Assembly: GCA_964402425.1 (NCBI GenBank)
Contig: CAYOCD010000001.1
Span: forward strand, 82,934-146,933
Direction: 5' to 3'
Length of the DNA: 64,000 nt
Source: an uncultured Gammaproteobacteria bacterium
GTDB taxonomy: Bacteria; Patescibacteriota; Patescibacteriia; UBA9934; GWF2-40-263
In this document: one piece after another, positions 41,858 to 58,007 of the stretch
Layout: each line of letters starts with the position of its first letter
Position numbering within the stretch: the first letter of the stretch is position 1
The notes under the pieces: generated by a model
What the model saw: the letters and a program-made list of their open reading frames with translations, nothing else
Told to the model about the DNA's origin: nothing
Database searches by the model: none
Position numbers and translations under genes: made by a program

Positions 41858-42226
41858 TCATGAAAACAACAAACGGAGATAGGGATAAAAAATCAGAACC
41901 CCAATAATAAAGGCAAACAACGACATAAGGAGTACTGCTGCGGCCATCATGTCTTTGGCTTCCTTTACAATTGGATGCAAACGAGGTTTGAACGCGTCCA
42001 GAACTCGTTCAAAAATACTGTTGATCAGCTCCAAAACAAGAACAGATGCAATCAAAAGTAAAAGAACGATATATTCCGAATTGGAAACTCTAAATCCGAT
42101 TGCAAACACAAGAACACCTACAGCCATGACAATTTGCAAACGAAAACTTTGCTCAGACCGAAAAACGGTCAAAAGGCCGTTTGTTGCATACCCGAAACTT
42201 TTTTTTAGCTGTTTCCAAAGAATCAT
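41858..42226 (-). CDS. dgkA: Diacylglycerol/undecaprenol kinase (DgkA family).
   Basis: Three TM, 122 aa. Motifs GYATNGL..VFRSEQSFR and ELINSIFERVLD...HPIVKEAKDMMAAAVL. Confidence 0.75.
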   Translation of the reverse strand: MILWKQLKKSFGYATNGLLTVFRSEQSFRLQIVMAVGVLVFAIGFRVSNSEYIVLLLLIASVLVLELINSIFERVLDAFKPRLHPIVKEAKDMMAAAVLLMSLFAFIIGVLIFYPYLRLLFS

Positions 42227-42660
42227 ATTCTGGGATCAACTCCAAGTTTCAGTAAAATTTTTGTTTGGAGTGGAAACATTTTTTTTGCATCAAATTCTTG
42301 TTCGTGGTCGAACCCGAAAACATGCAAAAGTCCGTGCACGATAAGGAACGTAAGCTCGTCACGCACGGAATGTTTCATTTCTTTTGCTTGTCGCTTGGCC
42401 TGCTCGTAACTCAACAAAATTTCTCCAAAATAATCTTCGTTATCAAGGGTAAAGGATAAAACATCTGTAACAGAATTTTTTCCTCGATGTTGCAAATTCA
42501 ACTTTTTCATTTCTTTTTCGGAAATAAATGCAATGGAAACGTTGTGTTTGCGCTTAAGTTTAAGGGCTTTTGAAACCTCCTCATCAATCTGAATAAGGCG
42601 CGTTTCTGGAAACCGCATCCCTCCTTTCAATCGCTGTTGATTCAGATCAATTTGGATCAT
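42223..42660 (-). CDS. ybeY: rRNA maturation endoribonuclease YbeY.
   Basis: Zinc-binding H-x3-H-x5-H motif FLIVHGLLHVFGFDHE. 4-nt overlaps with both neighbours. Confidence 0.8.
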   Translation of the reverse strand: MIQIDLNQQRLKGGMRFPETRLIQIDEEVSKALKLKRKHNVSIAFISEKEMKKLNLQHRGKNSVTDVLSFTLDNEDYFGEILLSYEQAKRQAKEMKHSVRDELTFLIVHGLLHVFGFDHEQEFDAKKMFPLQTKILLKLGVDPRI

Positions 42661-43652
42661 AATTTTTCCACACTATTCACCATCATTTGAACCGTTTGGA
42701 GATAATCAATGGTGGCTTTTGTTGAGGTGTCGTAAATAAGCGTCACAACTTGGCTTCCAAGATCAATATATGAACTCAACTGGTTTTTTGCGACAAGCAT
42801 TGGATATCCTTTTTTGCTTTTTGAAGCAGAGGGAGTTCCGTCTGTGACATTTTGCTGATACCAATCAACAAGGGTCAATGATGCATCTTTTGCTACAACC
42901 TGCACAGTCATATTTTCCCCCGTATTCGTTGTGATAACAGATCCTATCCCCACCTCCAAAGGTGCAGAAACCCATTTTGCAGGATACAACAACTGAAATC
43001 CATCTACCTGAAGCATTTGTGCGAGCCCTGCTAAAACTAACGTGCCCGGAGCTGTTCCGTTCGGGTTATACCCGTGATAAACCTCATTCCCATCCAAAAA
43101 TCCATCACTGTCAGAATCAGGTAAATTTGGATTTGTGGAGTAGACAATCGTCTCTTCCCCATCTGTTAATCCATCAGAGTCTGTGTCAACTCCCGGAGTT
43201 GCCGCTGGTGGAAATGGATTTGTAGATATCTCTGTACTTGGGGGTGTTGTAACAGGCGGTGTTGTTTGTGTGACGTCAGGCGTCTCTTTAGGTGTTTCTG
43301 TTACAATTGGTTGCTCTAAAATCACAGCTTCATTATTTTTTTGAACACTTCGGAAAAAGAGATATCCTCCGATCATAAGTGCCACAAGAACAATGAATCC
43401 CGCAATCAATAAACCTTTTTTGGTATGTGTTGGTTGATTCATTTGAGCTGCCACTGGAATTGGTGGAAGTGTTTTTGGTGGAGCAGGAGGCTGAACAACT
43501 GTAACAGGAGTTACAGCAACCTTTTGAGGTTCAACCATGTTTACAACAGCCCCATGACGATAGCGTGCCGGCATCGCAAATACACGCACCGGATCAGAGA
43601 TGCTTTCATTTGGAGGTTGCATAATCATCGATTGTGTATGTGCGTCCGCCAT
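42657..43652 (-). CDS. Single-pass membrane protein with C-terminal Asp-rich Ca-binding-like repeats (DTDSDG..DGEE..NPN.PDSDSDGFLDGNEV..GYNPNG; TSP3/dockerin-like) and an extracellular beta-rich domain.
   Basis: TM GLLIAGFIVLVALMIGGYLFF. Thr/Pro-rich linker. Paralogous C-terminus shared with the next two genes. Confidence 0.55.
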   Translation of the reverse strand: MADAHTQSMIMQPPNESISDPVRVFAMPARYRHGAVVNMVEPQKVAVTPVTVVQPPAPPKTLPPIPVAAQMNQPTHTKKGLLIAGFIVLVALMIGGYLFFRSVQKNNEAVILEQPIVTETPKETPDVTQTTPPVTTPPSTEISTNPFPPAATPGVDTDSDGLTDGEETIVYSTNPNLPDSDSDGFLDGNEVYHGYNPNGTAPGTLVLAGLAQMLQVDGFQLLYPAKWVSAPLEVGIGSVITTNTGENMTVQVVAKDASLTLVDWYQQNVTDGTPSASKSKKGYPMLVAKNQLSSYIDLGSQVVTLIYDTSTKATIDYLQTVQMMVNSVEKL

Positions 43653-43666
43653 ATGTTTTACGATTC

Positions 43667-44299
43667 CTATTTTTTTGGAATTTGAAGGAGTTGACCTGGC
43701 CCGCTTGGGTTATATCCTTTTTTAACCTCGTCACCATCTTTGTAGGTATCGCCATCTGTGTCTGGATTCAATGGGTTGGTTTGATAAACATCTACTTCTT
43801 CTTTATCAAAGAGTCCATCTGCATCTGTGTCTGGACTATTTGGATCTGTTCCCAAAAGAGCTTCACGTGCGTCCGGCAATCCGTCTTTGTCTGTATCTGC
43901 CGTTTGATCTTCTGCAGGAACTTGCACAGCCTCTTCCAAAGGAGCTGGTGTTGGCGTTGGTGTTTCAATCTCTGATGTTTCTAGTGACTCAGATGTAACA
44001 ACAGGAGCCGGTGGAGTCACAGGTGTACGAGAATTCAAAATTCTCATGGAGAGAAAAAACGCGAGTCCGACAACAGCGACAATCGCCACAAACAGAACGA
44101 TGAGCTTCCAAGGAAACGCTCGTTTCTCCCCCATTTCCGATCCCATCTCCATGCTTTTCATGGATGGCGGTTGAGGAGTTGCCATTGGTGCAAGAGAAGA
44201 TTCTGATTGCACACTCATGGTTGGAGGATTCATTTGAGGGGCGGTCGCATCGGTCTGAGCAAAAACATCTTCAGGTTCCTTTTGGAGTTCGTCGAACAT
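43667..44299 (-). CDS. Single-pass membrane protein with DxDxDG Ca-binding-like repeats (paralog 2).
   Basis: TM WKLIVLFVAIVAVVGLAFFL. DTDKDGLPDAREALLGTDPNSPDTDADGLFDKEEVDVYQTNPLNPDTDGDTYKDGDEVKKGYNPSG. Confidence 0.55.
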   Translation of the reverse strand: MFDELQKEPEDVFAQTDATAPQMNPPTMSVQSESSLAPMATPQPPSMKSMEMGSEMGEKRAFPWKLIVLFVAIVAVVGLAFFLSMRILNSRTPVTPPAPVVTSESLETSEIETPTPTPAPLEEAVQVPAEDQTADTDKDGLPDAREALLGTDPNSPDTDADGLFDKEEVDVYQTNPLNPDTDGDTYKDGDEVKKGYNPSGPGQLLQIPKK

Positions 44300-44354
44300 A
44301 TGTGGGGGAAAGTAGTAAGTAGAGAGAAGAAAGTAGAAAGGGGGAAAATGGAAA

Positions 44355-45158
44355 TTACTTCTTTAAAGGATCATACCCAGCATTTATCTCTTGTCCATCA
44401 AGAAAGGAATCGCCGTCTGTATCTGGATTGCGTGGATTTGTTCCATACAGAACGATTTCTTGTGTTGAGTCAATACCATCAAGATCCGGATCATTCACCA
44501 AAACTTGCGCTCGACATTCTGCAGAACGTTTTGGATCAAGTACGGCACAAACTTCCGCATCTTGTACTTGATTTGCTGCCGCAAGAACACGAACAAAGAA
44601 ACAATCTCCCTCATTATTCTCGCAAACCTGTGTTGTTGCAGATGCAATGACCTGCTTACAACTTATTTTCATTTGTCCATCCACTATTTTATCACACAAT
44701 GCCGTATCTGACGCAGTAATCGCCTTCAACACATTCAATTCATTCACACATCCTGACAACCAATCTTTATTTGCTATTTTTTCACAAATCGAAACATCTT
44801 CATTTACACGTGCCACACTCCAAAAACAATCATCTTTGTCTTCTTCTGTCAGAACATCACAGCTTTCTGATTTTTTTTCCGTGATCGCACGTTCTTTTGT
44901 TTTCAACACCTTACACGCCTCAGAATCTTCCGACACTTCACAAGACGCTTCTGCCGAAACAGATGTTGTGACTTGCTCCGATATTGTCCCAAAGACGCTC
45001 GCTGCTCCTGTCGCTTGCGTTGCTTGAGGAGTACGGTCACGAATGACATAAAGGACCCCTCCAATGATTCCCAGAGCCAAAACAACCCCGCCCGCAATGA
45101 TCGCGATCAGTTTCCAGGGGGTTTGTTTTGACTCGGATGGTTGGTCACCAAAATCCAT
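44355..45158 (-). CDS. Single-pass membrane protein with a Cys-rich ectodomain and C-terminal DxDxDG repeats (paralog 3).
   Basis: TM WKLIAIIAGGVVLALGIIGGVLYVI. About 14 Cys. C-terminus DPDLDGIDSTQEIVLYGTNPRNPDTDGDSFLDGQEINAGYDPLKK. Confidence 0.55.
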   Translation of the reverse strand: MDFGDQPSESKQTPWKLIAIIAGGVVLALGIIGGVLYVIRDRTPQATQATGAASVFGTISEQVTTSVSAEASCEVSEDSEACKVLKTKERAITEKKSESCDVLTEEDKDDCFWSVARVNEDVSICEKIANKDWLSGCVNELNVLKAITASDTALCDKIVDGQMKISCKQVIASATTQVCENNEGDCFFVRVLAAANQVQDAEVCAVLDPKRSAECRAQVLVNDPDLDGIDSTQEIVLYGTNPRNPDTDGDSFLDGQEINAGYDPLKK

Positions 45159-45162: not shown

Positions 45163-48100
45163 TTAATTTACGGGACAATAGGTGAATTCAATATTACTCA
45201 GAGTGACAGATGCACTTGTTGGATTCAATTTAACATTAATTGGAAGAGAAAATGGAGCATCCTGACAGATAAACTTGCTTGGAAGTGGCAACTTCAATCC
45301 GTTTCCGATCTCAAGCAAAGAAGTTCCTGTTTGTGGAAGTGTATATTTTCCATTTGCATCTTTAAATGTTGCTGCAATTAACGACACGGTATTTCCAGCA
45401 TTCAAAAGTGAACTTGATGAAGAAACATTTGCCGTAATTCCGACCCCAACTCGGCATGCTGGAAGCAACAAACTTGCACGATCTGGTGTTTTTCCTTCTG
45501 TATTTTCCAAACTAAATAAGGTGATACTGCTTGATGGTTGAGATTCGGCTACATTTCCTTGCACTTGAAGAGCAACTTTTTGGAATGCGGTCGGACAAGA
45601 ACTATTACAACTCGATGAACAAGTTGGCAGTACACATGTTCCTACACCTATACATTTTTCATTATTAGCCGTATTGCAATCACCGTTCCAGTTACAAGTA
45701 CTACCGGATGTTTCACAATATCCATCACAATTATTTTGATAAGCTGCGCATTTTTTTCCATTCTCCCCACGAAGAGAGCCTCCATTACAAGTACCCACAA
45801 TGCGACATGAATACCCCTTATCACAGGAAGTTCCGTGCCACGTTGATGTTGAACCATCATCTTTCTTCCCGTTAGCTGTGCCATCTGAGGTTAGTCCGAC
45901 ATCTTTTGAATCACACGGACCCTTTAGATCCATTTCATCCGCACTGATTGATTTTGTACATGTTCCATTTAACTTCGTACCATCACAATATTCGCCACCA
46001 TTGATTGCTCCATCTCCACAATACGGACCAGATTGTGTTTTGTACTGACAGTATTGATTACAGAAGTTACAGCTTGATCCGTACGCCGCATTACAAGCGA
46101 TTCCGTTTGCCTTACCGCTGTCACACGACTCGATTCCAACGTTTACAAAGTTATCGCCACACACGTTTGTCTTACAGGCGTTTGTACAACTGTCATTGCT
46201 GGAACTGTTTCCGTCATCGCATTCTTCTGTTCCTTCTTTCTTTCCATTACCACATTGTTGTGGACCACCAGCACACGCACCCCATCCACCACCGGCAAGA
46301 TTTGTGATCCACTGACAGCTGTTTGAAGATGGATTGTTGTAATTCTGACAGGTGCGTGTTCTGGTGAGGTCATATTGTTCTGCTGAACATTTTCCACCTG
46401 CCCCACAAGAAGCATCATCTGTACAAATCGCACCAATTGTTGTTCCGGCGGTACAAATCTTTGCTTTTGCACAAGCCGCAACAGGACATCCAGATGAAGC
46501 CGTACATTTTGTTCCATCGTTATTCAATGCACCAGCATACGTTTCTGTATTTCCATCGCATTTTTCTGATGAATCATTAATCAAATTGTCCCCGCACATT
46601 GGTCCTGGAGCTTTACACTCTGCAGTACAATTTTTTCCATCTTTGTCGTAATTTCCGTTATAGGTTGCACAATGATTACCGGACTTTGCCCAACTTGTTC
46701 CCGCAAGTGTCGACCAATTTGATGGCGTTCCGCAATCACATTGTTCATTCCCCGCGAGGTACCCGTCACCACACGCAAAATTAGAAACAACTTTACAATC
46801 TTTACCACAGTGGCCGTACGTACCATTCAGCGCAGTACCATCATCACAGACTTCACCAAGCGCTTTATCAATCACACCATCTCCACAAGAAAATGGCTTA
46901 CATGTTCCACCGGCTTTTTTTGCAGCATCCTCAGCGGCTGCATCTGTTGCATAATTTTTACAATCATTTTTACAAGTAACATTGATGAACCCTGCGTTGT
47001 TTGCGCAAGCAATCGATTTGACTTCACCAATTTCACAATCTTCACCCACACCCTTTACTCCATCACCACAAATCGTAGAGCTTCCAAAAACAGTTGCGTT
47101 GCAATAAGCGGAAGTTGAGACAAATCCTGGCAGGAGATTTGCAGGAGCTTTCCCGTTTAGATAAGCCGCTTTAATGGTCGCTTGATCACCAGATGCGTCT
47201 ATTTTATTGTTCCACGCAACCGTACTGTATTCCAATTCTGTTGTGAGGACATATGCTTCCCCACCAAAATTTTGATATCCGTACACATGAGAACCGTTTG
47301 GACAAAGAGATTTTCCTTGTGCGCTATTCCAACACGTTGCGGAATCATATCCTTCACCTACATTTTTACACTGTCCCCAGAATTGGTTGAGCGGATCTGT
47401 TGGCAGAGCACCCCCAACCTCATTTCCAAGCGTACTGTTCCAAGATGGCCAGATACTGTTACTTACAGAAGGAACAAACGTTCCTGCTTGAATAGTTGGA
47501 TAGCTCGGGATACATGTTTCTGTTCCTGGACAAGCAGAATTCGCTCCTGTACCCGCTTTACTGTTTTGAGAAACAACACAGGCTTGACTCTTGGTTACCG
47601 CACAACGACCGTTTGTGTTTCCGTATTTTTCAAATGTGGTCACCATCTCTGTGACATCTGTCAATCGTTTTGTGTCTCTGATCAATTTTTGTTTGTCTGC
47701 ATCACAGAACATGTTTGGATCAGCTACTGCACATTCCGCATTTCCTAATTTTGGATTACAAACTTTATCCGAAACGGAACATTTTCCATCTGGCTTACAT
47801 TGATCCAAACAGTCTCCATCCCATGAACATGTGGTAAACGGACCACTTGGTGGAACATAGGCACTTCCACTCTTACAAAGACCAACGTGCGACACTCCAG
47901 TTACACCAGTATCATTCGCGTTTAATCGGAAATTTTGTAAGACAAGATCAAAAATCTGTTGCGCATCTTTTCCGGCATCTGCGTTAAATGAGATAACGTA
48001 AATATTTGAATAGAGATTTGATCCGTTGCGATTTGCCGCTGCTGCATAAATCGTTGTTCCTGTTTGCACAGCTTCATATCCATCCAACTTGGCCGCCTTT

Positions 48101-51100
48101 GGTATTCCAGTAAATCCCTGTGATTTAAACCAAGCCATTGGTGACAGATAATTTGGATTTGAGAGAACACGCACTCCAATAGAGTCTTTTGTTCCAGAAA
48201 CGCGGAACACTAATTCTTTCAAGACATCTGTTGTAATGAGTTGATTTACATCTGGTGTTGCATCTGTTGGAGGAAGTTCAAGAGCAGGCAGCTTCTTTCC
48301 TTCTTCTGGTTTTCCAACATCTCGACAATAGAATAAGGAGAAGTTTGTGTTCGCTCCATTTTCAACAAATGGAACCCCGTGTGCCAAATCCGGCCATGGA
48401 TTTTCACACAAGAACGCAACCTCTGACACATGACCAGATACAGCCGAACCAACCGTTGATTTTGCACTTATTGTATCTGCAGAGATTGTTGCGGTTGCAA
48501 TAACATTTCCTGAACCGTTCTTTCCAAGGGCTTTATATTGCGCTGTTTGTGCGATGCTTGGTCCAACAATTCCTAAAATATCCATTTTAGTTGCCGTATC
48601 TTTCACGTTTGCAGCCCAGACCCACGTCCAAGCGTATACACCTGAAATTGAAGAGATTTCTTCAAGTGTTCCTGTGTTTTTGCGATAAGAAAACGGCTTT
48701 GTTGTAAATGCGTGGACTTCATTTGTCTTAGAATAATATCCGGGGCTCTTTGAGAGATACGAAGGTGGAGTTGGGGTGATTCCACCATCTGTTGTTTCCA
48801 CAACGTCAAGCAAACAAACATCCGCACCGGTTGTGAAAGTACTTGAGAGAGAAACAACGGAGCAAGTTGTGCCATTGTCACCAAGACAAACACTGACCTT
48901 GTTTTTACTAAGAACTCCCTTTGACGTTTCTCCGTTTTTTGTTTTTACCGTCAATTTATATTGCGCATTTGGAAGTAATTGTTCTGTGTAACGAAGATAA
49001 ACTTGATGTGTACCTGGGTCTTGTTCAAACGAAACAGGAACAAAACATTGCGTGGTTGCATTTGCCATGGCAGATTGCCCAAAAGCATCTTTAACCCAAT
49101 TCCAAACAAAAGAGAAAATATTTTTTGCACGCATGAATCCAACAGGCTTTGGATAATACGGACAGTTAACTGCTGTTACAGCCTCATTGATACCTAAACT
49201 ATTTTTCTTCGTAATCAGCTCAAGCTGAAGATTTGGATCTGTTTCTGCCGCACTTAATTTTCCATCTCCGTCAGTATCTACGGAACCAAACGTACTCGCA
49301 TCCATTTCTTGATCAAACGCAATGGAAATAGCCGTATTGCGACAAATGTTTGTTGCATTATTTCCAGGAACCATCGCTGTAATCGTTGGGCGCTCAAAAC
49401 AACACTTTTCCACACCGCAACCAAGCGATTTTGAAGATTCCCCTGTTTTTGTTCCACACTGATTATCGGAAGCACAGGAACAAAGCAATTTCACTTCGCC
49501 TGTACCTGTCTTTCCTCCAACGGAGACCTGTACATTTGAAACAGCATATCCGTATGTTGCTTTTTTCTCATCTTTTTCTACCTCAAGCGACGCTCCACTT
49601 GAAACTTCTGCAACACCATAAGCACCAACGGTATATGTTGCGGAAGCAGCTGCTTCACACTGCTCGCCCGGTTCAAGAGCTCCCCCATTTCCACAAACAG
49701 AAGGGATAGCATAATTTGGATTTGAACCCATCTTTAAACAACTCTTTGAACATCCAGGAGCGATAGATCCAACACCAAGATCACATCCTGCATCTTCCCC
49801 GGAATCTGTAACACCGTTTCCACAGACAAATTTTGCTGGATCTTTTCCAGGACTTGTTCCGCGATTCAAACAAAGATCTGTACAAGCCACTGTGGTACGA
49901 ACCTCACATTTTGAACCATCCTGACACGCTGCACCACCAATGGTACAGACAGCCCCATCCGCACAATGCGTTCCTGGATCACATGTCTCTCCAACACTAG
50001 CAATTCCATCTCCACAACGTGCATTTGAATACGCAACAACACCTCCTTCAAACAAACAATTTGAGGAACATCCATCTCCTTCTTTTATGTTTCCGTCATC
50101 ACAGGCTTCCCCACCATTTGTCTTTGAGTTATCAGCAACTCCGTCTCCACAAATAGATTTAATAGAGGAAACCCCTTCAAACAAACACTTTGCAGAACAT
50201 CCATCTCCACCCAAAACTTTTCCATCATCACATTGTTCACCCGCATCCACAACGTTATTTCCACACGTTGGAGCAACCGTTCCTTCTTTCAAACAACTTG
50301 ATGAACAGCCGTCTTTGTCATTTGTGTTTCCATCATCACAAGACTCCCCGTAATTTACTGCCCCATTTCCACAAACAGCTTGTCCGACTTTGATTGGGTT
50401 TCCTGTATACAAACAGTTTCCTCCACACATTTTTGGGAGTGTGTTTGTAAGAGCAAGCGAACCATTATTCAACAAAAACGCAGTGATCTCATTGTATTTA
50501 TGATCTGCTCCTATTACATACGATGCTGCACCGATCTTGTTTGGTGTATCTGTTGCACCCCATCCACCCCATCCACTTGCTTGCAAGGCTTGCCCTGTTA
50601 CAGAACATTCGTCCGGAGCTCCATATGCAATCGCGTTGTATTCTTGACGTTGACCAACATATTTAAGTATTGCCGACTTTGGAGAAAGCCCAACACGATC
50701 AACGGCACATGAGGTGAGCGAATCTTTTGACTTAAATTTCCAAGAAAACGCACCTGGATAAAATTTATTTTCAGGAGTTCCGTAATTAGATCCAGATTCT
50801 GAAAGAGATGAGGACACACTCGATTTAATCCAATCTGCGACAACAACTCGATACCACGTATTTGACACAAACGCAGCGCCATCTGTCACAATTGATGCTC
50901 GATATGTTGCAGAATCATATATGACACTCGTAACATGATTCCATGCGGTCAACTGACTCTTTTCACAAAGGGCATTTTCACATTGAAAAATACGAATTGC
51001 ACCCGCAATATTAAAGACAGCTGGATTCATTGGAACATTAAATGAAACCCACGGCTTCACGTTTGCACATGCGGCAGAACAGTTTGGAAAATAATCACTT

Positions 51101-54100
51101 ACTTTTGGTGTTGCAAGCGCGATGGTCAGAAGTCCTTTATTCGTTGGTTTATTTCCAACATCCGTAACCGTTGCACTAATTTCTGCAGGGATTCCAATAG
51201 GGGTGTTATAAAGAGGATTGACATTTACGGTACAAACACCGGCTGCAGGATTACTTGTTAATGTGTCACCCGGTAGGAATTTTGCTGCCTGTTGTGAAGA
51301 ACTCCAACTTACCGAATGTCCAGCACACGCAAGCACAACACACTTGTCTTTGTTTGAAAGTAATTGTGCAAGATATCCAACAGCATCTCCGGCATTTTTT
51401 GCCGTGAACGTTGCTGGAGAAACACTCACTCCACCAACACCACATGGCGCATTTGAGGAGGATGTTCTGAATTCCCAAGAATAATCTTTTGCCATGGAAG
51501 CACCCGAAACAAGTCCATTCACCTTAGATTTTACCCCACCCCCAGGAGCAGATGCCCCTTTGATGGTAACGCGATGCAAAGTACTTGTATCAAAATGATT
51601 ATTTGGAGACCATTGAAATGTATATTCACCTGGTGTCTGAAAAGAACCTGGCACCACTTGCCAATCTGCTGCTACACATGTTCCATTTACCTCTTTGGCT
51701 ATTGGACATTTTTCTATAACGATATTTGTGTTTCCGATACCGATCGTTGCAGGATCCATTGGAACCGCAAACGAAGCTGTCACTGCAGCTGAAACACAGA
51801 TATCATTTTGCGTACTCCAAAGTGGTGATGGGGATGGTGATGGCTTTGGAAATTTTGGATCCGCACAATTCACAACAACCGTTGGCGCAACAGGAATTGG
51901 GCTCGTTGAAACCTTGTAAACAAATTGAGAAAATTTCGGCCCATCGCTTGGACAGGCTTGGCCTACAAGTGAACACGAGCCATCTCCACAGCATGCCTGA
52001 CCAGCCGTACAGAGACTTGGAGTTTGCAGACAATTTCCAACCGCAAAATTTACCGAGTTTGATTGTTTCAGCGCAGCATCTACCACATAAACAGGACCTG
52101 ACTTTGTTCCAACAGGAACGCTCGCTGATCCGATTTCAGTTCCTGTCCAGGAACCAGGATCTTCGGAAAGATTTGTTGTAAACACAACCGCTCCTTTTTG
52201 ATCTCCAAAATTTTCTCCAAAAATATCAATCGATGTTCCGGCAGGACCCGCGTTTTTGCTTAAAAGACAAATTCCTGGTGTTGGTTTTCCATCCACAACG
52301 GTAAATGGTTTTGCATCAGAAGCATTTCCGGTCTGAGGCACAACACTCACTTCATAATTACCAGGTTTGATAGGACTCTTATCTAGATTAAATGGAACTT
52401 TTACCGTAACCGAATTAGTGTGCCAAAAAAGATCTCCACAAGCTTTTGGGAACTCTACATTTCCGTTTATAACCTCATTTGAAGTAAGATTTTTAAATTT
52501 AACGTATCCTGTAGATGACCCAAAATTGGATCCATAAATGGTTACATATTGTCCAGAAGGACCCCATGCTGACTGCGATTTACAAGAACCAGCTACGCCA
52601 CCACAATCCTTATCCGTAGAACAATATTGATTTGCTATCGCTCCTCCATTACAGACTTTCCAACCTGTATCAATTGTAGCGATCGTTGCTTTTTCTACAT
52701 TTGGTGTGTTTGTTGCAACAAATTTCTTTGTATTAGAACCAACGCGAACATCCATACATGTTCCACCCGCAGCTCCACAAGCCGTATTATCCTGACAATA
52801 TTGAAGCGTCTCAGAACACCAGGACATTCCACACTTATATGCTGCATCTACTTTTGTACAATCCGCATTTGAAAAACAAGAAAGCGCTGGACTCACTTTT
52901 GCCCCACTCGCATTCAAACAGAAATAATCACCTGTAAAAACTTGGGCATTATACGTTCCGCTTGCAACTCCTGGTACATTTCCTTTCAATTCCGTCGCTC
53001 CCCACAAAGAAGGCGTCAACTGAAAATTTGAAAGATAAACAGAAGACGAACCTTGTCCAGCACCAAACGCAAGACCAGTCAGAGTAATTAACGTATTCAC
53101 TTCCGCAGCTGGTGTAATCGAACACAAACCAGGGCGCTTAATTGCGTTTACATCAAATTTAGATATGACGGGTCCAACAGCATCATCAGTTCTTTCTGAC
53201 TGTGCTGCTGCCCCCAGAGCACCTGCTGGAATATTGATTTTTAACGGACCATCAATAGCACCAGCCGGTACTTTCACAACAATTTCCTTTTCTTTCCAAG
53301 AAGAAGTTCCGCCACACTGGAATGCGTTTGCCACTTTTGTCGTTCCATCTTTTTCTGCTCCAAGAAATTCAACCGTACCGGGCGTTGTCCCAAATCCAGA
53401 ACCTGTAATCGTGATTAAGTTTTCTACAGCACCATTGTCTGGAGAGATAGATTGAATAACAGGGACATCCTGACATCTTCCTGCAATACAAAACCCAGAA
53501 GAACATTGTGCATTACTCGTACACGCAGACGGCTTACAGAGCCCGCAAAAATATTCGCTTGTTGCGTCTCCACCACAATCACACGCATCACCAACTGCAC
53601 ATGTTCCCGTTTCTCCATACGGAGCACTTGCATCTTGCGTGCCATTGTCACAGTTTGGCGCACGAAGCATGACAGAAACTTTTCTGGAAATTTGTGTAGA
53701 TCCCGCACAATCAGTAGCCATTGCCCAAACGGCATATGACTTATTTGCAACAAATCCAACCGGAGTCCATTCTCCATTAAAAAATGCTGTTGTGAGTCCA
53801 TTTAATGCCGTAGGATTCACCGCAATAGAAGATGTATCAACAGAAGTTTCTCCGTCTGCAGCAAAAAATTCAACACTGGCCACTCCTGTATCATCAACCG
53901 TTCTTACTTGAAGTGGTTTGCTTAATCCCAAAATAGCTTTTGCTCCAGCTTGTGGTTCTACAAACGAAACTTCTTGAGGTGGTTTTGTGTCCACAACAGA
54001 GCCTGTTGTGAAATCAAACGAACAAGGATTCACTCCCCCCTCCGTCTTACAAGTAAGCGTTGCACCGCTTGCTGATTTAACTTGTGCAGGATCTACCTCA

Positions 54101-54816
54101 ACATGAAATGCGGCGTTTGGTGCAAAACAAGACAAAGATTCATTTGGAGTCGGACATTTTTCTTCTGGCGTGAACATGACTTTTCTGCCAGAAAACGTAA
54201 AAGACCCGGGAACATCCACCCCGTCTCTTGTGATCTTTATTCCCTTTTCATCTTTCACGGATTTTGAAAAAACAAGGGATAATTTAAGGTTACGAACACC
54301 CGCAGCACATTGGATAATGGACGTTGGCGGATTTAATGAGAATACAGGAGTTGGTGACGGAAACGGTGAAGTTTTTAAACAAGATAGATCTGTAGGATTT
54401 TTTTTACAAAACGCAATAATATCTGCATTCGATGTTGCTCCCACCAACTTTGAAATGACGAATTGTGCAATCGCAAACGATGACAAAACAATCACAAGAC
54501 CGATTAAACCGTTTTTAATGGAGTTCTTTGCTTTTTTGAGACGATCTTCGTTTCCACCCGCCGTCATGTACATGAATCCTCCGTACAGAACAATCATGAC
54601 CGCAATAATTCCAAGAAACGAAATGACTGTGCGAATCAAACGCGCAATAATGACGGTAATGGAAGGCCCTGTTGAAAACCCCGCGTTGGCCGCAAAAGAA
54701 GCAAACGCATCTGGATCTACAGGACTTGCAGCGAGGATTGGTTGAGCAAAAAAGATTCCCGTGCAAAGGAGAACGGTTAGAATAAACATCGATTGAAGCA
54801 ATCTGCGGAGGTTCAT
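45163..54816 (-). CDS. Giant (3217 aa) cysteine-rich cell-surface protein. N-terminal signal peptide plus two-helix membrane hairpin domain, SbsA-type Ig-like / beta-rich regions, and at least 10 Myxococcus-type cysteine-rich repeats (CGNGxxxxGExCDDGNxxxGDGCSxxC).
   Basis: Single uninterrupted ORF. N-terminus MNLRRLLQSMFILTVLLCTGIFFAQPILAAS...IIARLIRTVISFLGIIAVMIVLYGGFMYMTAGGNEDRLKKAKNSIKNGLIGLVIVLSSFAIAQFVI. Repeats such as CGNGAVNYGESCDDGNTNDKDGCSSSCLKEG, CGNNVVDAGEQCDDGKVLGGDGCSAKCLFEG and CGDGAINGGEYCDG. Confidence 0.7.
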   Translation of the reverse strand: MNLRRLLQSMFILTVLLCTGIFFAQPILAASPVDPDAFASFAANAGFSTGPSITVIIARLIRTVISFLGIIAVMIVLYGGFMYMTAGGNEDRLKKAKNSIKNGLIGLVIVLSSFAIAQFVISKLVGATSNADIIAFCKKNPTDLSCLKTSPFPSPTPVFSLNPPTSIIQCAAGVRNLKLSLVFSKSVKDEKGIKITRDGVDVPGSFTFSGRKVMFTPEEKCPTPNESLSCFAPNAAFHVEVDPAQVKSASGATLTCKTEGGVNPCSFDFTTGSVVDTKPPQEVSFVEPQAGAKAILGLSKPLQVRTVDDTGVASVEFFAADGETSVDTSSIAVNPTALNGLTTAFFNGEWTPVGFVANKSYAVWAMATDCAGSTQISRKVSVMLRAPNCDNGTQDASAPYGETGTCAVGDACDCGGDATSEYFCGLCKPSACTSNAQCSSGFCIAGRCQDVPVIQSISPDNGAVENLITITGSGFGTTPGTVEFLGAEKDGTTKVANAFQCGGTSSWKEKEIVVKVPAGAIDGPLKINIPAGALGAAAQSERTDDAVGPVISKFDVNAIKRPGLCSITPAAEVNTLITLTGLAFGAGQGSSSVYLSNFQLTPSLWGATELKGNVPGVASGTYNAQVFTGDYFCLNASGAKVSPALSCFSNADCTKVDAAYKCGMSWCSETLQYCQDNTACGAAGGTCMDVRVGSNTKKFVATNTPNVEKATIATIDTGWKVCNGGAIANQYCSTDKDCGGVAGSCKSQSAWGPSGQYVTIYGSNFGSSTGYVKFKNLTSNEVINGNVEFPKACGDLFWHTNSVTVKVPFNLDKSPIKPGNYEVSVVPQTGNASDAKPFTVVDGKPTPGICLLSKNAGPAGTSIDIFGENFGDQKGAVVFTTNLSEDPGSWTGTEIGSASVPVGTKSGPVYVVDAALKQSNSVNFAVGNCLQTPSLCTAGQACCGDGSCSLVGQACPSDGPKFSQFVYKVSTSPIPVAPTVVVNCADPKFPKPSPSPSPLWSTQNDICVSAAVTASFAVPMDPATIGIGNTNIVIEKCPIAKEVNGTCVAADWQVVPGSFQTPGEYTFQWSPNNHFDTSTLHRVTIKGASAPGGGVKSKVNGLVSGASMAKDYSWEFRTSSSNAPCGVGGVSVSPATFTAKNAGDAVGYLAQLLSNKDKCVVLACAGHSVSWSSSQQAAKFLPGDTLTSNPAAGVCTVNVNPLYNTPIGIPAEISATVTDVGNKPTNKGLLTIALATPKVSDYFPNCSAACANVKPWVSFNVPMNPAVFNIAGAIRIFQCENALCEKSQLTAWNHVTSVIYDSATYRASIVTDGAAFVSNTWYRVVVADWIKSSVSSSLSESGSNYGTPENKFYPGAFSWKFKSKDSLTSCAVDRVGLSPKSAILKYVGQRQEYNAIAYGAPDECSVTGQALQASGWGGWGATDTPNKIGAASYVIGADHKYNEITAFLLNNGSLALTNTLPKMCGGNCLYTGNPIKVGQAVCGNGAVNYGESCDDGNTNDKDGCSSSCLKEGTVAPTCGNNVVDAGEQCDDGKVLGGDGCSAKCLFEGVSSIKSICGDGVADNSKTNGGEACDDGNIKEGDGCSSNCLFEGGVVAYSNARCGDGIASVGETCDPGTHCADGAVCTIGGAACQDGSKCEVRTTVACTDLCLNRGTSPGKDPAKFVCGNGVTDSGEDAGCDLGVGSIAPGCSKSCLKMGSNPNYAIPSVCGNGGALEPGEQCEAAASATYTVGAYGVAEVSSGASLEVEKDEKKATYGYAVSNVQVSVGGKTGTGEVKLLCSCASDNQCGTKTGESSKSLGCGVEKCCFERPTITAMVPGNNATNICRNTAISIAFDQEMDASTFGSVDTDGDGKLSAAETDPNLQLELITKKNSLGINEAVTAVNCPYYPKPVGFMRAKNIFSFVWNWVKDAFGQSAMANATTQCFVPVSFEQDPGTHQVYLRYTEQLLPNAQYKLTVKTKNGETSKGVLSKNKVSVCLGDNGTTCSVVSLSSTFTTGADVCLLDVVETTDGGITPTPPSYLSKSPGYYSKTNEVHAFTTKPFSYRKNTGTLEEISSISGVYAWTWVWAANVKDTATKMDILGIVGPSIAQTAQYKALGKNGSGNVIATATISADTISAKSTVGSAVSGHVSEVAFLCENPWPDLAHGVPFVENGANTNFSLFYCRDVGKPEEGKKLPALELPPTDATPDVNQLITTDVLKELVFRVSGTKDSIGVRVLSNPNYLSPMAWFKSQGFTGIPKAAKLDGYEAVQTGTTIYAAAANRNGSNLYSNIYVISFNADAGKDAQQIFDLVLQNFRLNANDTGVTGVSHVGLCKSGSAYVPPSGPFTTCSWDGDCLDQCKPDGKCSVSDKVCNPKLGNAECAVADPNMFCDADKQKLIRDTKRLTDVTEMVTTFEKYGNTNGRCAVTKSQACVVSQNSKAGTGANSACPGTETCIPSYPTIQAGTFVPSVSNSIWPSWNSTLGNEVGGALPTDPLNQFWGQCKNVGEGYDSATCWNSAQGKSLCPNGSHVYGYQNFGGEAYVLTTELEYSTVAWNNKIDASGDQATIKAAYLNGKAPANLLPGFVSTSAYCNATVFGSSTICGDGVKGVGEDCEIGEVKSIACANNAGFINVTCKNDCKNYATDAAAEDAAKKAGGTCKPFSCGDGVIDKALGEVCDDGTALNGTYGHCGKDCKVVSNFACGDGYLAGNEQCDCGTPSNWSTLAGTSWAKSGNHCATYNGNYDKDGKNCTAECKAPGPMCGDNLINDSSEKCDGNTETYAGALNNDGTKCTASSGCPVAACAKAKICTAGTTIGAICTDDASCGAGGKCSAEQYDLTRTRTCQNYNNPSSNSCQWITNLAGGGWGACAGGPQQCGNGKKEGTEECDDGNSSSNDSCTNACKTNVCGDNFVNVGIESCDSGKANGIACNAAYGSSCNFCNQYCQYKTQSGPYCGDGAINGGEYCDGTKLNGTCTKSISADEMDLKGPCDSKDVGLTSDGTANGKKDDGSTSTWHGTSCDKGYSCRIVGTCNGGSLRGENGKKCAAYQNNCDGYCETSGSTCNWNGDCNTANNEKCIGVGTCVLPTCSSSCNSSCPTAFQKVALQVQGNVAESQPSSSITLFSLENTEGKTPDRASLLLPACRVGVGITANVSSSSSLLNAGNTVSLIAATFKDANGKYTLPQTGTSLLEIGNGLKLPLPSKFICQDAPFSLPINVKLNPTSASVTLSNIEFTYCPVN

Positions 54817-54826
54817 GTAAAAAAGA

Positions 54827-56737
54827 TTACGGTGCGATCACAGGATAGGGACACGCGGGACTTGAAACTGAGCTCGATGGTTCTCCGTTACAGCAATAAG
54901 GCTTCGTTTCATCTGTTCCGTTACAATTTTTTGCTGAACTTGCGGCTGTTGCCGCTGACGGGAACATACAAATCTGATACACACTTTTGACATCTTGTGT
55001 GACAGATGGCCAATAAGATGACCCACCTTCTGCATTTGAAATAAACGCTGGATGAGAAATATGTACGACGGATTTAGTTGGGATATCTGTTTTAAGCGCA
55101 TTCGGAAGATCTGTTTTTGATACCGAGTACCACATGGGATATTTTGGATCCGGCAACAAAGAGATGTTTGTTGCATTGACTGTTGAGGCTTTGAGCAACG
55201 TATTAAACGAAAGTGTAACATCTGCCGATACATCAATGTTTCCTTCAAGGATATCTGGTGCAAGCGCTTCAATTTTTGGAACCGTGTCATTAATGATGTT
55301 TGTTGTCTTAAAACTCCATGCGTAATCATCATTTGCTTGCGTTCCGGAACACGCAACACTATCTTTTGAACTTCCGCATGCTTTACCATCATTATTTCCG
55401 TCTAACGAATTTCCTGCGGCATCCACAACTCCATCATAACTTACCCCAGTCAAAACACCTTGTGGGACGTTTGTAGGATCAATACTTGCTGCTTTAGCCG
55501 TAACGGTTATTTGTTTTCCTCCTGGCAAACAATAAATCTTTCCACCACACGGATCTTTTCCACAATCATCTGTTGTTGTGAAACTCACTGTTTTATATCC
55601 GTTACTGATATCATAAGTACCGTTTATTGGGTTTGCTCCACCATCACTTGATGCGATACGCTGAAATGCCTTTAGCTCTCCCCCTCCCGCAAGATATGTT
55701 CCTGATACAGCGATCGGATCCATTGGTTCATTAAATGTCAGTTCTATGGAAATGTTTCGTGCAAATTCTGAAAGTGATTGACCTTCTTGTAAAGGCTTCA
55801 CGGATGGAATGACAGAAATAATCGTTGGTGGTGTTAAATCAACATTGGTTGAAACGGTGAAATTCCATCCATATCCTGCCGAATTCACACCGGTAAATGC
55901 AGCACCACCCGCTTGTTTTTCAATACTTGGTTTAAGAGCAACGGTAAAAGATGCATTTGTTTGAGGATTTCCAAGATATGTAACTGGCTTGAACACAAAT
56001 GTCTTGAAATCCTCACTCACAGTTACCACAACTTTATCACTCGCAAGTTTTGTTGTTTCACCTTTTGCTGTCTCAAAAATGGAGACGGCGTTTGTTTTTA
56101 ACTTTGTGCTACACAAAGGAACGGTTTGATTAGCTGCAACTGTATACGTACAAGGTGATTTGTAGCCATCAATAATGGTCTCAGGTTTAATTGGCTCTTT
56201 GAAGGTAACAAAGATTTTTGTGTTACGTGGAACATCTGAAGCGTTTCTGACAGGAAAATGACTTTCAAGAATACCCGCCCCAAGTGAACCCGCAAGCGGC
56301 TCTGTATATTTTTTTGCAACAGACACAATCGAGCCTGGGCCATAAGCAGCATTAAGCAATTTTCCAAGAATCCATGAAGCGATGGAATAGGAAGAAAGAA
56401 TAATGACAAGACCGATGACTGCGTTTGAAATGATCTTTTTTGCTTTTGCAACTTTTGCCAAATCTCCGGAAGCGGTCATGTACATGAACCCGGCAGAAAT
56501 AACCAAAAGAACCATCACAATTCCAAGAACCCCAAGAACTGCCCGAATGATGCGCGCAATGAAAATAGGCAAGCTTGTTTGTGGGAGTCCTGCTCCCTCA
56601 CCCAAAGACTGAAGAGCATCCGCTGCAAATACCCCGTGCGGAATCAAAAAAGATCCGATGACAACAAAGAACAGCACACCAAAAAAAGCTACTCTGTAAG
56701 CCGGAAGTTTATTTGTAAGACGGAAAAATCGCTTCAT
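54827..56737 (-). CDS. 636-aa surface protein with the same N-terminal two-helix hairpin domain as the giant protein, followed by Ig-like (SbsA_Ig-type) domains and a Cys-containing C-terminus.
   Basis: N-terminus ...FIARIIRAVLGVLGIVMVLLVISAGFMYMTASGDLAKVAKAKKIISNAVIGLVIILSSYSIASWIL. Ig-like signature TPPTIISVIP...ISIELTFNEPMDPIAV. 10-nt gap to the giant gene. Confidence 0.65.
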   Translation of the reverse strand: MKRFFRLTNKLPAYRVAFFGVLFFVVIGSFLIPHGVFAADALQSLGEGAGLPQTSLPIFIARIIRAVLGVLGIVMVLLVISAGFMYMTASGDLAKVAKAKKIISNAVIGLVIILSSYSIASWILGKLLNAAYGPGSIVSVAKKYTEPLAGSLGAGILESHFPVRNASDVPRNTKIFVTFKEPIKPETIIDGYKSPCTYTVAANQTVPLCSTKLKTNAVSIFETAKGETTKLASDKVVVTVSEDFKTFVFKPVTYLGNPQTNASFTVALKPSIEKQAGGAAFTGVNSAGYGWNFTVSTNVDLTPPTIISVIPSVKPLQEGQSLSEFARNISIELTFNEPMDPIAVSGTYLAGGGELKAFQRIASSDGGANPINGTYDISNGYKTVSFTTTDDCGKDPCGGKIYCLPGGKQITVTAKAASIDPTNVPQGVLTGVSYDGVVDAAGNSLDGNNDGKACGSSKDSVACSGTQANDDYAWSFKTTNIINDTVPKIEALAPDILEGNIDVSADVTLSFNTLLKASTVNATNISLLPDPKYPMWYSVSKTDLPNALKTDIPTKSVVHISHPAFISNAEGGSSYWPSVTQDVKSVYQICMFPSAATAASSAKNCNGTDETKPYCCNGEPSSSVSSPACPYPVIAP

Positions 56738-56809
56738 GTAATATCAAAAATACGACACAAACATTGTATCGTATTTTTCTTCAATCGAATAGAAAAAGAT
56801 GGGGATAAA

Positions 56810-56946
56810 GAGTAAGGCTATAAAGGCAATAGAGGCTTGAGATGCCGAAGGGAACAAAAAAAAGAACGCGGTCAACGCGTTCTTTATTTTCTTGTTTCTT
56901 TTTTTCGGCATCTCAAGCCTCTCCAGCATCTCTCGCCTCTCTAGCT
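56810..56946. repeat. GA-rich palindromic element H: 16-bp perfect inverted repeat GAGGCTTGAGATGCCG/CGGCATCTCAAGCCTC plus CTCTCGCCTCTC arm. Loop carries the hairpin GAACGCGGTCAACGCGTTC. Abuts the stop of the yqeY-fusion gene.
   Basis: Seen in sequence between 56737 and 56941. Confidence 0.7.
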
Positions 56947-57714
56947 TATCTGATTCAATACCGCCGTTGTGACAAAAAACAACGCCACAACAACTCCCAT
57001 ATTCATAAATCCACCCATGATTTTCTGTTCCGCTTTATCTCTTACAACATCTCGTGCGGACCCAACAGTCATTTCAATCCCACCACGAATAATTTCAATG
57101 ATAGAAAAAAGTCCGGCGAACAAGAACATGACACGCACAAGACGAATCCCCATTTCAAGATATGGCAAATACGAATAGGTTCCGAATTCTGGCAATGTTA
57201 TCATGCCGATTTCCGCATGCGCAGAAGAGACGACTATCGTATTTACCAAAACAGCAAAGATAAACACTCCAAGCAACTTCTCAACGAGTCCTTTCACACG
57301 TGTACCGTCAGCACGCCCTGCAACGGCCTTCATGACAAATCCCATCGCCTTGCCCATGTCCGCTTTTGATGCAGCTCCCGATTGCAAAACAGCTTCACGA
57401 ACCACCATTTCAAGATCGGCATCAGACAATTCTGCTGGCATGTATTTTTTTAACACTTCAAGCTCAAGTTTATTCCCTTCTGCAAGATCGGCTCGTCCGC
57501 CAGCCTCAAACTGATCAATCGCTTCTTTCAATTGTTTTGCCTGAGACTTAATCACATCCGATACCTCCGCATCCGTAAGCGGACGCATAAGATCAATCTC
57601 TTTATTTTTAAGAGCAGACTTAAGCATGCGAAGTGTGGAAAGTGTTGATTCGTCTTTTGCACGCATGGCGTCTTTAAGGTCTGAACCGATTTGTTCAAGA
57701 AGAGTCATAGACAA
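56941..57714 (-). CDS. yqeY: GatB/YqeY-domain protein (N-terminal 150 aa) fused in frame to a C-terminal signal-peptide-like segment plus a third copy of the two-helix hairpin domain. Possibly two genes sharing a frame (internal GTG start).
   Basis: YqeY pattern LKDAMRAKDESTLSTLRMLKSALKNKEIDL...LTDAEVSDVIKSQAKQLKEAIDQFEAGGRADLAEGNKLELEVLKKYMP. The tail LLGVFIFAVLVNTIVVSSAHAEIG...IRLVRVMFLFAGLFSIIEIIRGGIEMTVGSARDVVRDKAEQKIMGGFMNMGVVVALFFV aligns with the N-termini of 54827..56737 and 45163..54816. Confidence 0.6.
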   Translation of the reverse strand: MSMTLLEQIGSDLKDAMRAKDESTLSTLRMLKSALKNKEIDLMRPLTDAEVSDVIKSQAKQLKEAIDQFEAGGRADLAEGNKLELEVLKKYMPAELSDADLEMVVREAVLQSGAASKADMGKAMGFVMKAVAGRADGTRVKGLVEKLLGVFIFAVLVNTIVVSSAHAEIGMITLPEFGTYSYLPYLEMGIRLVRVMFLFAGLFSIIEIIRGGIEMTVGSARDVVRDKAEQKIMGGFMNMGVVVALFFVTTAVLNQIS

Positions 57715-57764
57715 ATTATTATAAACGAAAAAGAGGGGCGGATAAACCGCTCCCTCATTTTACC

Positions 57765-58007
57765 CTATCTGCGTTTCTGTGTACGAGGTTCATCCACAAG
57801 CTGTCCGATACGTGCCAAGTATTCGCGCTTATCGCGAATTTCAAGACGACGAATCGCACTTACTTTTTGTTTGTTTTTGGTTGGTGCTGGGATATAAGAA
57901 CGGAGCTTGCGTGCTTCAAGCGCGTTTCCAGACTGCTGGAGACGACGAGAGTAGCGACGGAGCAAACTTTCGAAACTTTCACCTTTGCGACGTTTAACAT
58001 CTACCAC
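57765..58007 (-). CDS. rpsU: 30S ribosomal protein S21.
   Basis: MVDVKRRKGESFESLLRRYSRRLQQSGNALEARKLRSYIPAPTKNKQK, basic, 80 aa. Immediately upstream of yqeY, as in Firmicutes. Confidence 0.7.
   Translation of the reverse strand: MVDVKRRKGESFESLLRRYSRRLQQSGNALEARKLRSYIPAPTKNKQKVSAIRRLEIRDKREYLARIGQLVDEPRTQKRR

Follow-up and report, generated by a model that had tools for sequence, protein, structure and literature searches.

A five-gene set with VirB2-like domains at a fixed address between yqeY and ybeY in Candidatus Uhrbacteria

Did the genes that separate rpsU-yqeY from ybeY-dgkA in this genome recently interrupt a housekeeping operon, or do they belong to the inherited gene order of its lineage? 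The question is raised by a 64-kb stretch of contig CAYOCD010000001.1 (hereafter the window), in which five genes stand between yqeY and ybeY on one strand. They encode a 636-residue protein (p636), a protein of 3217 residues (the giant) and three small membrane proteins with DxDxDG repeats (tsp267, tsp210 and tsp331). An earlier note on this DNA had described them as an accessory surface-protein module inserted into a conserved Firmicutes operon. The overall best explanation, to which a probability of about 0.72 is assigned, is an ancient and fixed insertion whose products share VirB2-like domains and would contribute to a surface assembly, with the locus transcribed as two units.

The closest homologues of YqeY, YbeY and p636 are named Candidatus Uhrbacteria, which NCBI places in Candidatus Uhriibacteriota within the Parcubacteria group of the Patescibacteria. 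These matches identify the host, an ultra-small bacterium from groundwater, as Candidatus Uhrbacteria, a member of the candidate phyla radiation (CPR, or Patescibacteria), and not as a Firmicute. Conservation of the arrangement was surveyed in GTDB species representatives, one genome per species, which were scanned with an alignment of YqeY homologues; the 80 loci returned were annotated with the window's own proteins, and two were too short to judge. A p636 orthologue follows yqeY in 62 of the 80 loci, i.e., in all 62 informative Uhrbacteria-type loci, at a median gap of 82 nt, and the 16 loci without the module are all from non-Uhrbacteria. The gene rpsU lies 5' of yqeY in 60 of the 62 module-bearing loci, and the giant comes next after p636 in 56, the remainder being interrupted by contig ends. 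The ybeY end is equally constant: six of six relatives (L090–L095; YbeY 56–62% identical) carry the giant, three small transmembrane (TM)/TSP3 proteins, ybeY, dgkA, ftsA and ftsZ, usually followed by nrdR and pyk. Their giant measures 2300–3800 aa and is at times split in two, as in L092 (open reading frames, ORFs, of 2327 and 1504 aa) and L094 (2425 and 1653 aa). Both ends are joined in one relative, where loci L013 and L090 belong to a single contig that contains the entire block, with 16.1 kb from yqeY to ybeY. When the search was reversed and started from distant p636 homologues, rpsU-yqeY was found to precede p636 in three of three loci. This demonstrates that rpsU-yqeY-[five genes]-ybeY-dgkA-ftsA-ftsZ-nrdR is a synteny block conserved across the sampled Uhrbacteria. 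The label "accessory" does not survive these counts at the yqeY end, at the ybeY end and in the reverse test, and the comparison of gene order in relatives, which the earlier note had itself named in advance as able to refute its reading, shows the same intervening genes there; yqeY stands directly next to ybeY in non-Uhrbacteria genomes.

The proteins of the module are orthologous and colinear with those of relatives. Relative to the L013/L090 genome, identity is 46% for p636, 40–42% for the giant and 41–52% for the TSP3 proteins (orthologues of tsp210, 51–52%); the corresponding values for the housekeeping proteins are 61% (YbeY), 84% (FtsA) and 81% (FtsZ). The giant is colinear with its L013/L090 orthologue, at approx. 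40% identity spread evenly along the full length. Orthologues of p636 form a family of 600–660 aa, and the listed homologues are named from Uhrbacteria or Patescibacteria only, except for a 2.4-kb contig labelled "Chloroflexi" and some entries labelled generically as "bacterium"; all are full-length orthologues. The G+C content at third codon positions (GC3) of the module is 0.28–0.35 and its synonymous-codon distance to host genes 0.04–0.08, like that of pyk, ftsA and htrA, which agrees with an old age of the module. The composition check proposed by the earlier note thus revealed no foreign signature. When measured by the usual marks of a genomic island, the composition is not deviant, the distribution is not patchy, and the module borders lack an integrase, a transposase and a tRNA gene. 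Hence, the module genes are core genes with host-like composition and do not form an accessory island; recent horizontal acquisition was ruled out by GC3, codon usage and conservation in relatives.

The direction of the change is indicated by more distant genomes. One outgroup locus (L052) reads rpsU-yqeY-ybeY-ftsA without a spacer, a second (L046) reads yqeY-ybeY-dgkA-ftsA-ftsZ...nrdR, and in a Daviesbacteria metagenome-assembled genome (MAG; L083) yqeY adjoins ybeY; in these three different non-Uhrbacteria lineages, the yqeY-ybeY distance is 0–104 nt. In a Firmicute (L047), the two genes are approx. 8 kb apart and enclose NfeD, FloA, a small acid-soluble spore protein, YqfD, PhoH and PgpH. 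Because yqeY and ybeY adjoin in the outgroups and the Firmicute slot is filled by unrelated genes, the rpsU-yqeY...ybeY-dgkA frame is old and its interior is lineage-specific. A single insertion at the yqeY-ybeY junction, no later than the common ancestor of the Uhrbacteria sampled, probably brought in the five genes, which were then inherited vertically. The earlier idea of an insertion into a housekeeping cluster is therefore retained with respect to outgroups in which yqeY and ybeY are adjacent, and abandoned as a recent or accessory event.

The Firmicutes cluster rpsU-yqeY...phoH-pgpH-ybeY-dgkA, which had served as the template for that idea, shares with the window the outer frame, the orientation on one strand and the adjacency of rpsU to yqeY and of ybeY to dgkA. 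The inner genes, however, are unrelated: in the window tsp331 precedes ybeY, and ftsA-ftsZ-nrdR follow dgkA. Neither phoH nor pgpH was seen among the scanned ORFs of the window, and era was not seen after dgkA. For an Uhrbacteria host this template is the wrong yardstick, all the more so as the Firmicute itself keeps yqeY and ybeY well apart.

Three consecutive genes of the locus have a VirB2/TrbC-like domain in common, which is N-terminal in p636 and the giant and C-terminal on YqeY. In p636 (32.6 bits) and the giant (28.5 bits), it matches the T4SS_pilin family PF18895 above the cut-off of 26.6; the YqeY extension matches this family only at the profile level and in 4 of 19 homologues. The expected VirB2-type architecture is present, namely a signal peptide and two hydrophobic helices separated by a short polar loop, with an AxA motif in the alignments, predicted cleavage and helical hairpins in AlphaFold2 (AF2) models. 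VirB2 proteins are small (approx. 70–120 aa when mature), and this does not apply to p636 (636 aa), the giant (3217 aa) or the YqeY fusion (257 aa); a stand-alone small form (137 aa) was found only in L034. Since these proteins are not small and no type IV secretion system (T4SS) machinery is encoded within the 64 kb, they are referred to here as VirB2-like-domain proteins and not as pilins.

The continuation of the yqeY frame into a copy of the two-helix domain, noticed in the earlier note, is supported by profile comparison. In the extension, a hydrophobic helix with a conserved, signal-peptidase-like A-H-A site at its end precedes a hairpin of two helices. When its profile was aligned by hhalign with that of the p636 and giant N-termini, a probability of 98.5% and an E value of 1.6e-15 were obtained over 97 columns, which span the hydrophobic leader, the AxA site and both helices. 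A hidden Markov model (HMM) of the extension, run against the window, finds the giant (2.4e-14) and p636 (4.3e-12) and has no other match there, and PF18895 is matched independently by the four fused YqeY homologues mentioned above, out of 19. The AF2 model of the fusion (mean predicted local distance difference test, pLDDT, 75.6) comprises the YqeY bundle, a helix leading into the membrane segment, a disordered linker and a hairpin formed by residues 183–217 and 222–256.

The same note had taken this read-through as a mark of the insertion, an interpretation that is not compatible with its conservation: the in-frame fusion is kept in 20 species-level genomes, down to 37% identity, and in roughly 100 of the 120 protein clusters listed. 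The other 42 module-bearing genomes encode an ordinary YqeY of approx. 147 aa, and in some of them p636 and the giant are separated by a small pilin ORF. In L034, the Uhrbacteria MAG UBA12432, yqeY ends with TAA and a separate 137-aa gene (L034 3230–3643) starts 7 nt later; its product has its own signal peptide and is homologous to the YqeY extension (hhalign 98%, E = 1.7e-13). Judging from these sequences, yqeY most likely lost its stop codon and was thereby fused to a small, formerly stand-alone pilin gene, which is still separate in L034. In the literature searched, no account of this locus or of any YqeY-pilin fusion was found.

The AF2 model of p636 (pLDDT 79; predicted template modelling score 0.72) shows a signal/TM helix, a long helical hairpin, three β-sandwich (Ig-like) domains and a Cys-containing C-terminus. 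The orthologues of the giant gain and lose VWA and DUF4215 modules, while the N-terminal domain and the overall colinearity are kept; VWA domains were seen in those of L093–L096. The three small proteins tsp210, tsp267 and tsp331 each have one TM-like segment and all contain DxDxDG motifs, which score 48.3, 19.1 and 24.6 bits, respectively, against PF18884 (TSP3_bac, cut-off 25). NCBIfam returned sub-threshold matches only, to a pilin-like protein of a Mycoplasma integrative and conjugative element (NF045849) and, via the TSP3 repeats, to CglD/MtsD. In the proposed model, the cluster would encode a cell-surface assembly, for which the shared pilin-like hairpins would either serve as membrane anchors or bring about joint assembly of the proteins, in the membrane or in a short VirB2-like fibre. 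The Ig-like and Cys-rich chains, together with VWA in some relatives, would be displayed outside the cell for adhesion or as an envelope structure, and the three single-pass TSP3 proteins may act as Ca-binding membrane partners.

Arrays of VirB2-like pilins are widespread in Patescibacteria (PMC12102498), and in Ca. Southlakia epibionticum, the one system tested, such an array is essential for epibiotic growth (PMC10633639). The Uhrbacteria locus resembles these VirB2/TrbC pilin arrays in the PF18895 domain, in the divergent copies in consecutive genes, in belonging to the same phylum and in lacking a relaxase. It differs in that two copies bear ectodomains of 500 and 3100 aa and the third stands behind cytoplasmic YqeY, in the lack of virB4, virB6 and virB3 within 64 kb, and in its fixed housekeeping address instead of a T4SS locus. 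The locus thus extends the known Patescibacterial pilin arrays by modular giants and by a fusion with a translation-associated protein.

Modular type IV pilins consist of a pilin onto which a functional module has been grafted, for example the vWA module in PilB of Streptococcus sanguinis. As in these proteins, a small N-terminal pilin domain in the module, putatively polymerising or anchoring, would bear a large adhesive part, including VWA in some giant orthologues. Modular type IV pilins, however, differ in pilin fold and assembly machinery: they possess a class III signal peptide and depend on PilD/PilB, in contrast to the VirB2-like hairpin present here. The Myxococcus TSP3 proteins CglD and MtsD share the DxDxDG-type repeats of PF18884, to which the weak NCBIfam matches are confined; the scores of 17.8–29.3 bits for CglD (cut-off 400) and 18.1 bits for MtsD (cut-off 800) are far below threshold, and the window encodes small single-pass membrane proteins instead of large lipoproteins and no gliding machinery. 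Giant Ig-like-repeat adhesins and S-layer proteins are likewise chains of β-sandwiches (Big_5 and TIG in the module), and the p636 model resembles BIg or cadherin-like domains and, weakly, EA1. In contrast to those proteins, a VirB2-like hairpin would serve as the anchor and LPXTG, SLH or type I secretion system (T1SS) signals are missing. Typical adhesins are also strain-variable, whereas the giant is a single-copy protein that stays colinear and keeps its position throughout the lineage.

The transcription of the locus can be approached via its spacers. The intergenic gaps are 50 nt (rpsU-yqeY), 203 nt (yqeY-p636), 10 nt (p636-giant), 4 nt (giant-tsp267), 55 nt (tsp267-tsp210) and 14 nt (tsp210-tsp331), and 4-nt ATGA overlaps link the tsp331 stop to the ybeY start and ybeY to dgkA; the yqeY-p636 spacer is the sole exception to the tight 4–55 nt spacing within the cluster. 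RNA folding of this spacer yields -82.8 kcal/mol (z = -10.35), owing to a composite palindrome with perfect 19-nt outer arms (56831–56849 and 56904–56922) and an inner hairpin (56861–56885) of 10 bp, which contains GC pairs and is flanked by an A-run on one side and a T-run on the other. In sequence, the inner hairpin looks like a bidirectional intrinsic terminator. No credible terminator was found from p636 until the 14-bp palindrome after ftsA. Given the strong terminator-like palindrome, read-through from rpsU-yqeY into the module is doubtful in this genome, and given the ATGA overlaps, ybeY-dgkA is probably co-transcribed with the last gene of the module. Co-transcription of the module with ribosome-biogenesis genes, as envisaged in the earlier note, is accordingly likely where the module adjoins ybeY and doubtful on the rpsU side of this genome. 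According to this model, rpsU-yqeY would be its own transcription unit, ended by the inserted palindromic terminator, and the next unit would run from p636 through tsp331, ybeY, dgkA and ftsA, with ybeY and dgkA expressed from the surface-module transcript. In Francisella, rpsU-yqeY has been reported as an independent transcription unit (PMC13374519).

Promoter-like matches are not enriched over shuffled sequences (28 vs. 33.7 expected), and the site upstream of rpsU is to be read as a consensus match only. A perfect TATAAT lies approx. 12 nt 5' of the likely yqeY ATG (57708), and the 57708–57760 region may, as far as can be judged from its sequence, combine an rpsU attenuator with a near-leaderless yqeY transcript. 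The 75 nt 5' of p636 (56746–56820) are approx. 95% identical in the two closest genomes, compared with only 71–88% for the flanking proteins, and are thus better conserved than the coding sequence beside them, which points to a conserved regulatory leader, possibly an attenuator or promoter. An Rfam scan of the whole window at gathering thresholds returned a tmRNA and one tRNA only, and no match for the yqeY-p636 spacer. Among relatives, the clade with the fusion has a terminator-like hairpin, different from the palindrome of the window, after yqeY in 14 of 19 scorable loci; the unfused clade mostly has short yqeY-p636 gaps without such a hairpin.

The palindrome at the yqeY junction, to which the earlier note had drawn attention, is real, but it is no part of the module insertion: the two closest genomes (L010 and L012), which already have the module, lack a stretch of approx. 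125 nt comprising it in their orthologous spacer of 71–79 nt. For this reason, it is regarded, on sequence comparison, as a lineage-specific repeat element that was inserted recently and is unrelated to the origin of the module. It belongs to a family of inverted repeats with arms of 3–4 tandem 9-nt units (GAGAKGCNN), which give 21 matches in the window, compared with approx. 0.04 expected by chance, with related copies at ~19821–19909, 21195–21265, 23450–23901 and 30912–30954. The copy at 23450–23901 flanks a gene (23507–23875) for a 122-aa 23S-rRNA-intervening-sequence protein, a four-helix bundle (Pfam 107.5 bits), and the remaining copies enclose short hairpins only. The pattern is suggestive of a small cassette, mobile or recombinogenic, that has given rise to miniature derivatives. 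Within the module, a tandem-repeat search returned the palindrome arms only. The yqeY-p636 junction is also a recurrent insertion point: an extra 1.1–7 kb is present there in 7 of the 62 relatives (L018, L035, L049, L061, L065, L071 and L088), and the L061 insert includes two homologues of a 945-aa LVIVD/β-propeller protein encoded elsewhere in the window.

Could the module nevertheless be a recent accessory or mobile island of this genome, with the palindrome as its scar and the yqeY read-through as a by-product? The adjacency of yqeY and ybeY in outgroups, the palindromic repeat at the junction and the ability of this junction to accept 1–7 kb of extra DNA would fit such a scenario. It is, however, hardly credible, given that the module is found at the same place in all informative Uhrbacteria-type genomes and stays colinear down to approx. 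40% protein identity, that its composition is host-like and its borders are devoid of mobility genes, and that the nearest relatives have the module without the palindrome and the fusion is conserved well beyond this species. A contrary view would make the arrangement ancestral to a larger group, CPR or beyond, with repeated loss of the module in outgroups. The frame is indeed ancient, and the approx. 8 kb of membrane-associated genes in the Firmicute slot show that this slot is old and often filled. Yet its contents are unrelated between phyla, the listed p636 homologues are, apart from the few labels noted above, confined to Uhrbacteria/Patescibacteria, and yqeY and ybeY are nearly contiguous in three non-Uhrbacteria lineages, which renders repeated loss quite improbable.

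A further possibility is that functional coupling keeps the genes together, with YqeY as a membrane-tethered component or regulator of the assembly and the module co-expressed with ybeY, dgkA and ftsA, e.g., for envelope growth at division. The invariant adjacency, the Rosetta-stone-type fusion with its conserved in-frame linker in 20 genomes, the recurrence of the stop/start overlaps between tsp331, ybeY and dgkA in relatives, and the action of dgkA and ftsA at the membrane are all in its favour. On the other hand, the conserved AxA site predicts a signal-peptidase cleavage that would separate the pilin from YqeY, YqeY is unfused in two thirds of the module-bearing genomes, a terminator-like hairpin follows yqeY in most scorable loci of the fused clade, and small reduced genomes retain gene order for non-functional reasons. 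Coupling is thus considered rather unlikely. It is likewise only a tentative suggestion, and one of low odds, that YqeY is a working partner of the VirB2-like surface assembly in Uhrbacteria, either as a membrane-tethered cytoplasmic subunit or as the leader of a polyprotein. In the latter form, YqeY would act as an oversized leader, and the mature pilin, once freed by signal peptidase, would nucleate or anchor p636 and the giant as "modular pilins". If true, VirB2-like hairpins would here build, independently of a T4SS, a fixed, lineage-defining surface structure that is co-expressed with ybeY, dgkA and ftsA.

Several observations weigh against the preferred reading, i.e., the ancient insertion encoding a surface assembly in two transcription units. 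No VirB4, VirB6, VirB3 or other T4SS Pfam domain was detected in the 64-kb window, in which most ORFs of at least 150 aa were scanned; there is thus no support for assembly of a VirB2-type pilus, and the domain may do no more than anchor proteins in the membrane. A Foldseek comparison of the p636 model with the PDB returned generic tandem Ig-like folds only (LdtMt2 BIg domains, cadherins, Fabs and CopC), and the pilin-domain profile had no match at E ≤ 1 among PDB sequences. Between the two spacer hairpins, no convincing p636 promoter was seen, and the proposed operon boundaries are drawn from hairpins and gene spacing. The direction of the change, insertion as opposed to repeated outgroup loss, would follow by parsimony from a few outgroup loci, the taxonomy labels of which are partly unreliable. 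Finally, the loci were retrieved by similarity to the YqeY of the window, so that Uhrbacteria with a very divergent YqeY could be missed.

The genes of the locus were assigned by scoring the ORFs of the window with Pfam HMMs, with NCBIfam/TIGR as a second library (Table 1). The earlier naming of rpsU, yqeY, ybeY and dgkA was confirmed in this way, on the minus strand and at the positions proposed, as was the content of the interval; its length, given as approx. 14.6 kb, is slightly shorter when measured from the ybeY start to the yqeY stop (14.28 kb, five genes). The rpsU product scores 19.6 bits with TIGR00030, under its cut-off, and its borderline assignment is based on the conserved position and on phmmer matches to the gene 5' of yqeY in 60 of 62 related loci. 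The true start of yqeY is probably the ATG at 57708 (MTLLEQ..., matching homologues), and the TTG listed at 57714 would be two codons too long. The C-terminus of tsp331 comprises an uncharacterised domain of approx. 130 aa.

Table 1. Positions of genes, domains and candidate signals at the yqeY-ybeY locus, in window coordinates.
Feature	Position	Strand	Evidence or description
Best sigma-70-like promoter match (TTGACG-17-TATTAT), 42 nt 5' of rpsU	58049..58077	minus	10/12 positions
rpsU (ribosomal protein bS21), 80 aa	57765..58007	minus	Pfam Ribosomal_S21 27.5 bits, cut-off 27; borderline
GC-rich hairpin and T-run, rpsU-yqeY gap	57735..57753	minus	Possible attenuator/terminator, predicted from sequence
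yqeY ORF	56941..57714	minus	Pfam YqeY 154.7 bits, domain residues 7–148
yqeY, cytoplasmic YqeY/GatB-like part, residues 1–148	57271..57714	minus	AF2 helical bundle, pLDDT 80–92
YqeY C-terminal extension, VirB2-like T4SS_pilin domain copy	56941..57270	minus	Profile alignment and AF2
Composite palindromic repeat element	56815..56945		Arms of 9-nt units GAGAKGCNN around terminator-like hairpin
AU-rich hairpin and U-run, 8 nt 5' of p636 ATG	56746..56778	minus	Putative regulatory role
p636, 636 aa	54827..56737	minus	Pfam T4SS_pilin and Big_5
giant, 3217 aa, 171 Cys	45163..54816	minus	T4SS_pilin, TIG, Big_5, Cys-rich DUF4215/myxo_disulf repeats
tsp267, 267 aa	44355..45158	minus	N-terminal TM helix, Cys-rich ectodomain, C-terminal TSP3 repeats
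tsp210, 210 aa	43667..44299	minus	Cytoplasmic N-terminus, one TM helix, Pro/Thr-rich linker, three TSP3 Ca-binding-type repeats
tsp331, 331 aa	42657..43652	minus	Cytoplasmic N-terminus, one TM helix, Pro/Thr linker, two TSP3 repeats
ybeY (endoribonuclease, rRNA maturation)	42223..42660	minus	Pfam YbeY 123.9 bits
dgkA (prokaryotic diacylglycerol/undecaprenol kinase family)	41858..42226	minus	Pfam DAGK_prokar 101.6 bits
ftsA, 71 nt 3' of dgkA	40527..41786	minus	Part of conserved block ybeY-dgkA-ftsA-ftsZ-nrdR
14-bp palindromic terminator-like hairpin after ftsA	40443..40474		Likely 3' end of transcription unit

The integrity of the assembly is supported by ten same-species contigs from independent metagenome samples, which have an identical ybeY gene and the same upstream gene order; five of them were compared at the DNA level and are colinear with the window at 99.85–99.99% identity. 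An assembly chimera was thereby ruled out. In contigs L002 and L009, small ORFs are called in place of the giant; this is a gene-calling difference only, as L002 is 99.98% identical to the window and the frame of the giant is open in it.

Outside the locus, the 9-kb block 13987–22901 has 54–63% G+C in a genome of approx. 42%, a GC3 of 0.64–0.83 and a codon distance of 0.22–0.34, and is a much better candidate than the module for DNA that is foreign or aberrant in composition. Its products are four Cys-rich MopE-motif repeat proteins, one with Somatomedin_B, and a 512-aa protein without a Pfam match. Its junction with normal-GC genes (Wzz, PDZ) recurs in independent assemblies and is therefore real, and a MopE protein is also encoded near rpsU in another Uhrbacteria contig. 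The stretch immediately 5' of rpsU (58120–63921, same strand) is occupied by a type IV pilus/pseudopilin-like cluster with genes for N_methyl pilins of 176, 173 and 178 aa, for a PilM-like protein of 331 aa and for the 945-aa LVIVD/β-propeller protein; more distant relatives have signal peptidase I and hisS in its place. The window further contains the tmRNA gene (tag AKNVMAMIKDAFRAPAFAPVFA) and smpB at 28698–29088 and 30394–30894, 1.3 kb apart, and a tRNA-Asp gene at 34167–34244. The ftsA-ftsZ spacer (39849–40526) is unusually long, at approx. 680 nt, and carries purine-rich GGCGGAGAA-like units beside the ftsA terminator, as well as an opposite-strand ORF of 158 aa (39931–40407) that has no Pfam match and is annotated by gene callers in same-species contigs.

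A "split operon", when judged by a Firmicutes template, can thus be an ancient and vertically inherited arrangement, which calls for caution in the scanning of genomes. For the Uhrbacteria, which are uncultivated, the locus provides a giant, Ig-rich set of proteins with VirB2-like domains that belongs to the core of the sampled lineage and has an invariant address. As such a fixed core feature, it is a good marker for the lineage and a prime candidate for a host-contact or envelope structure.

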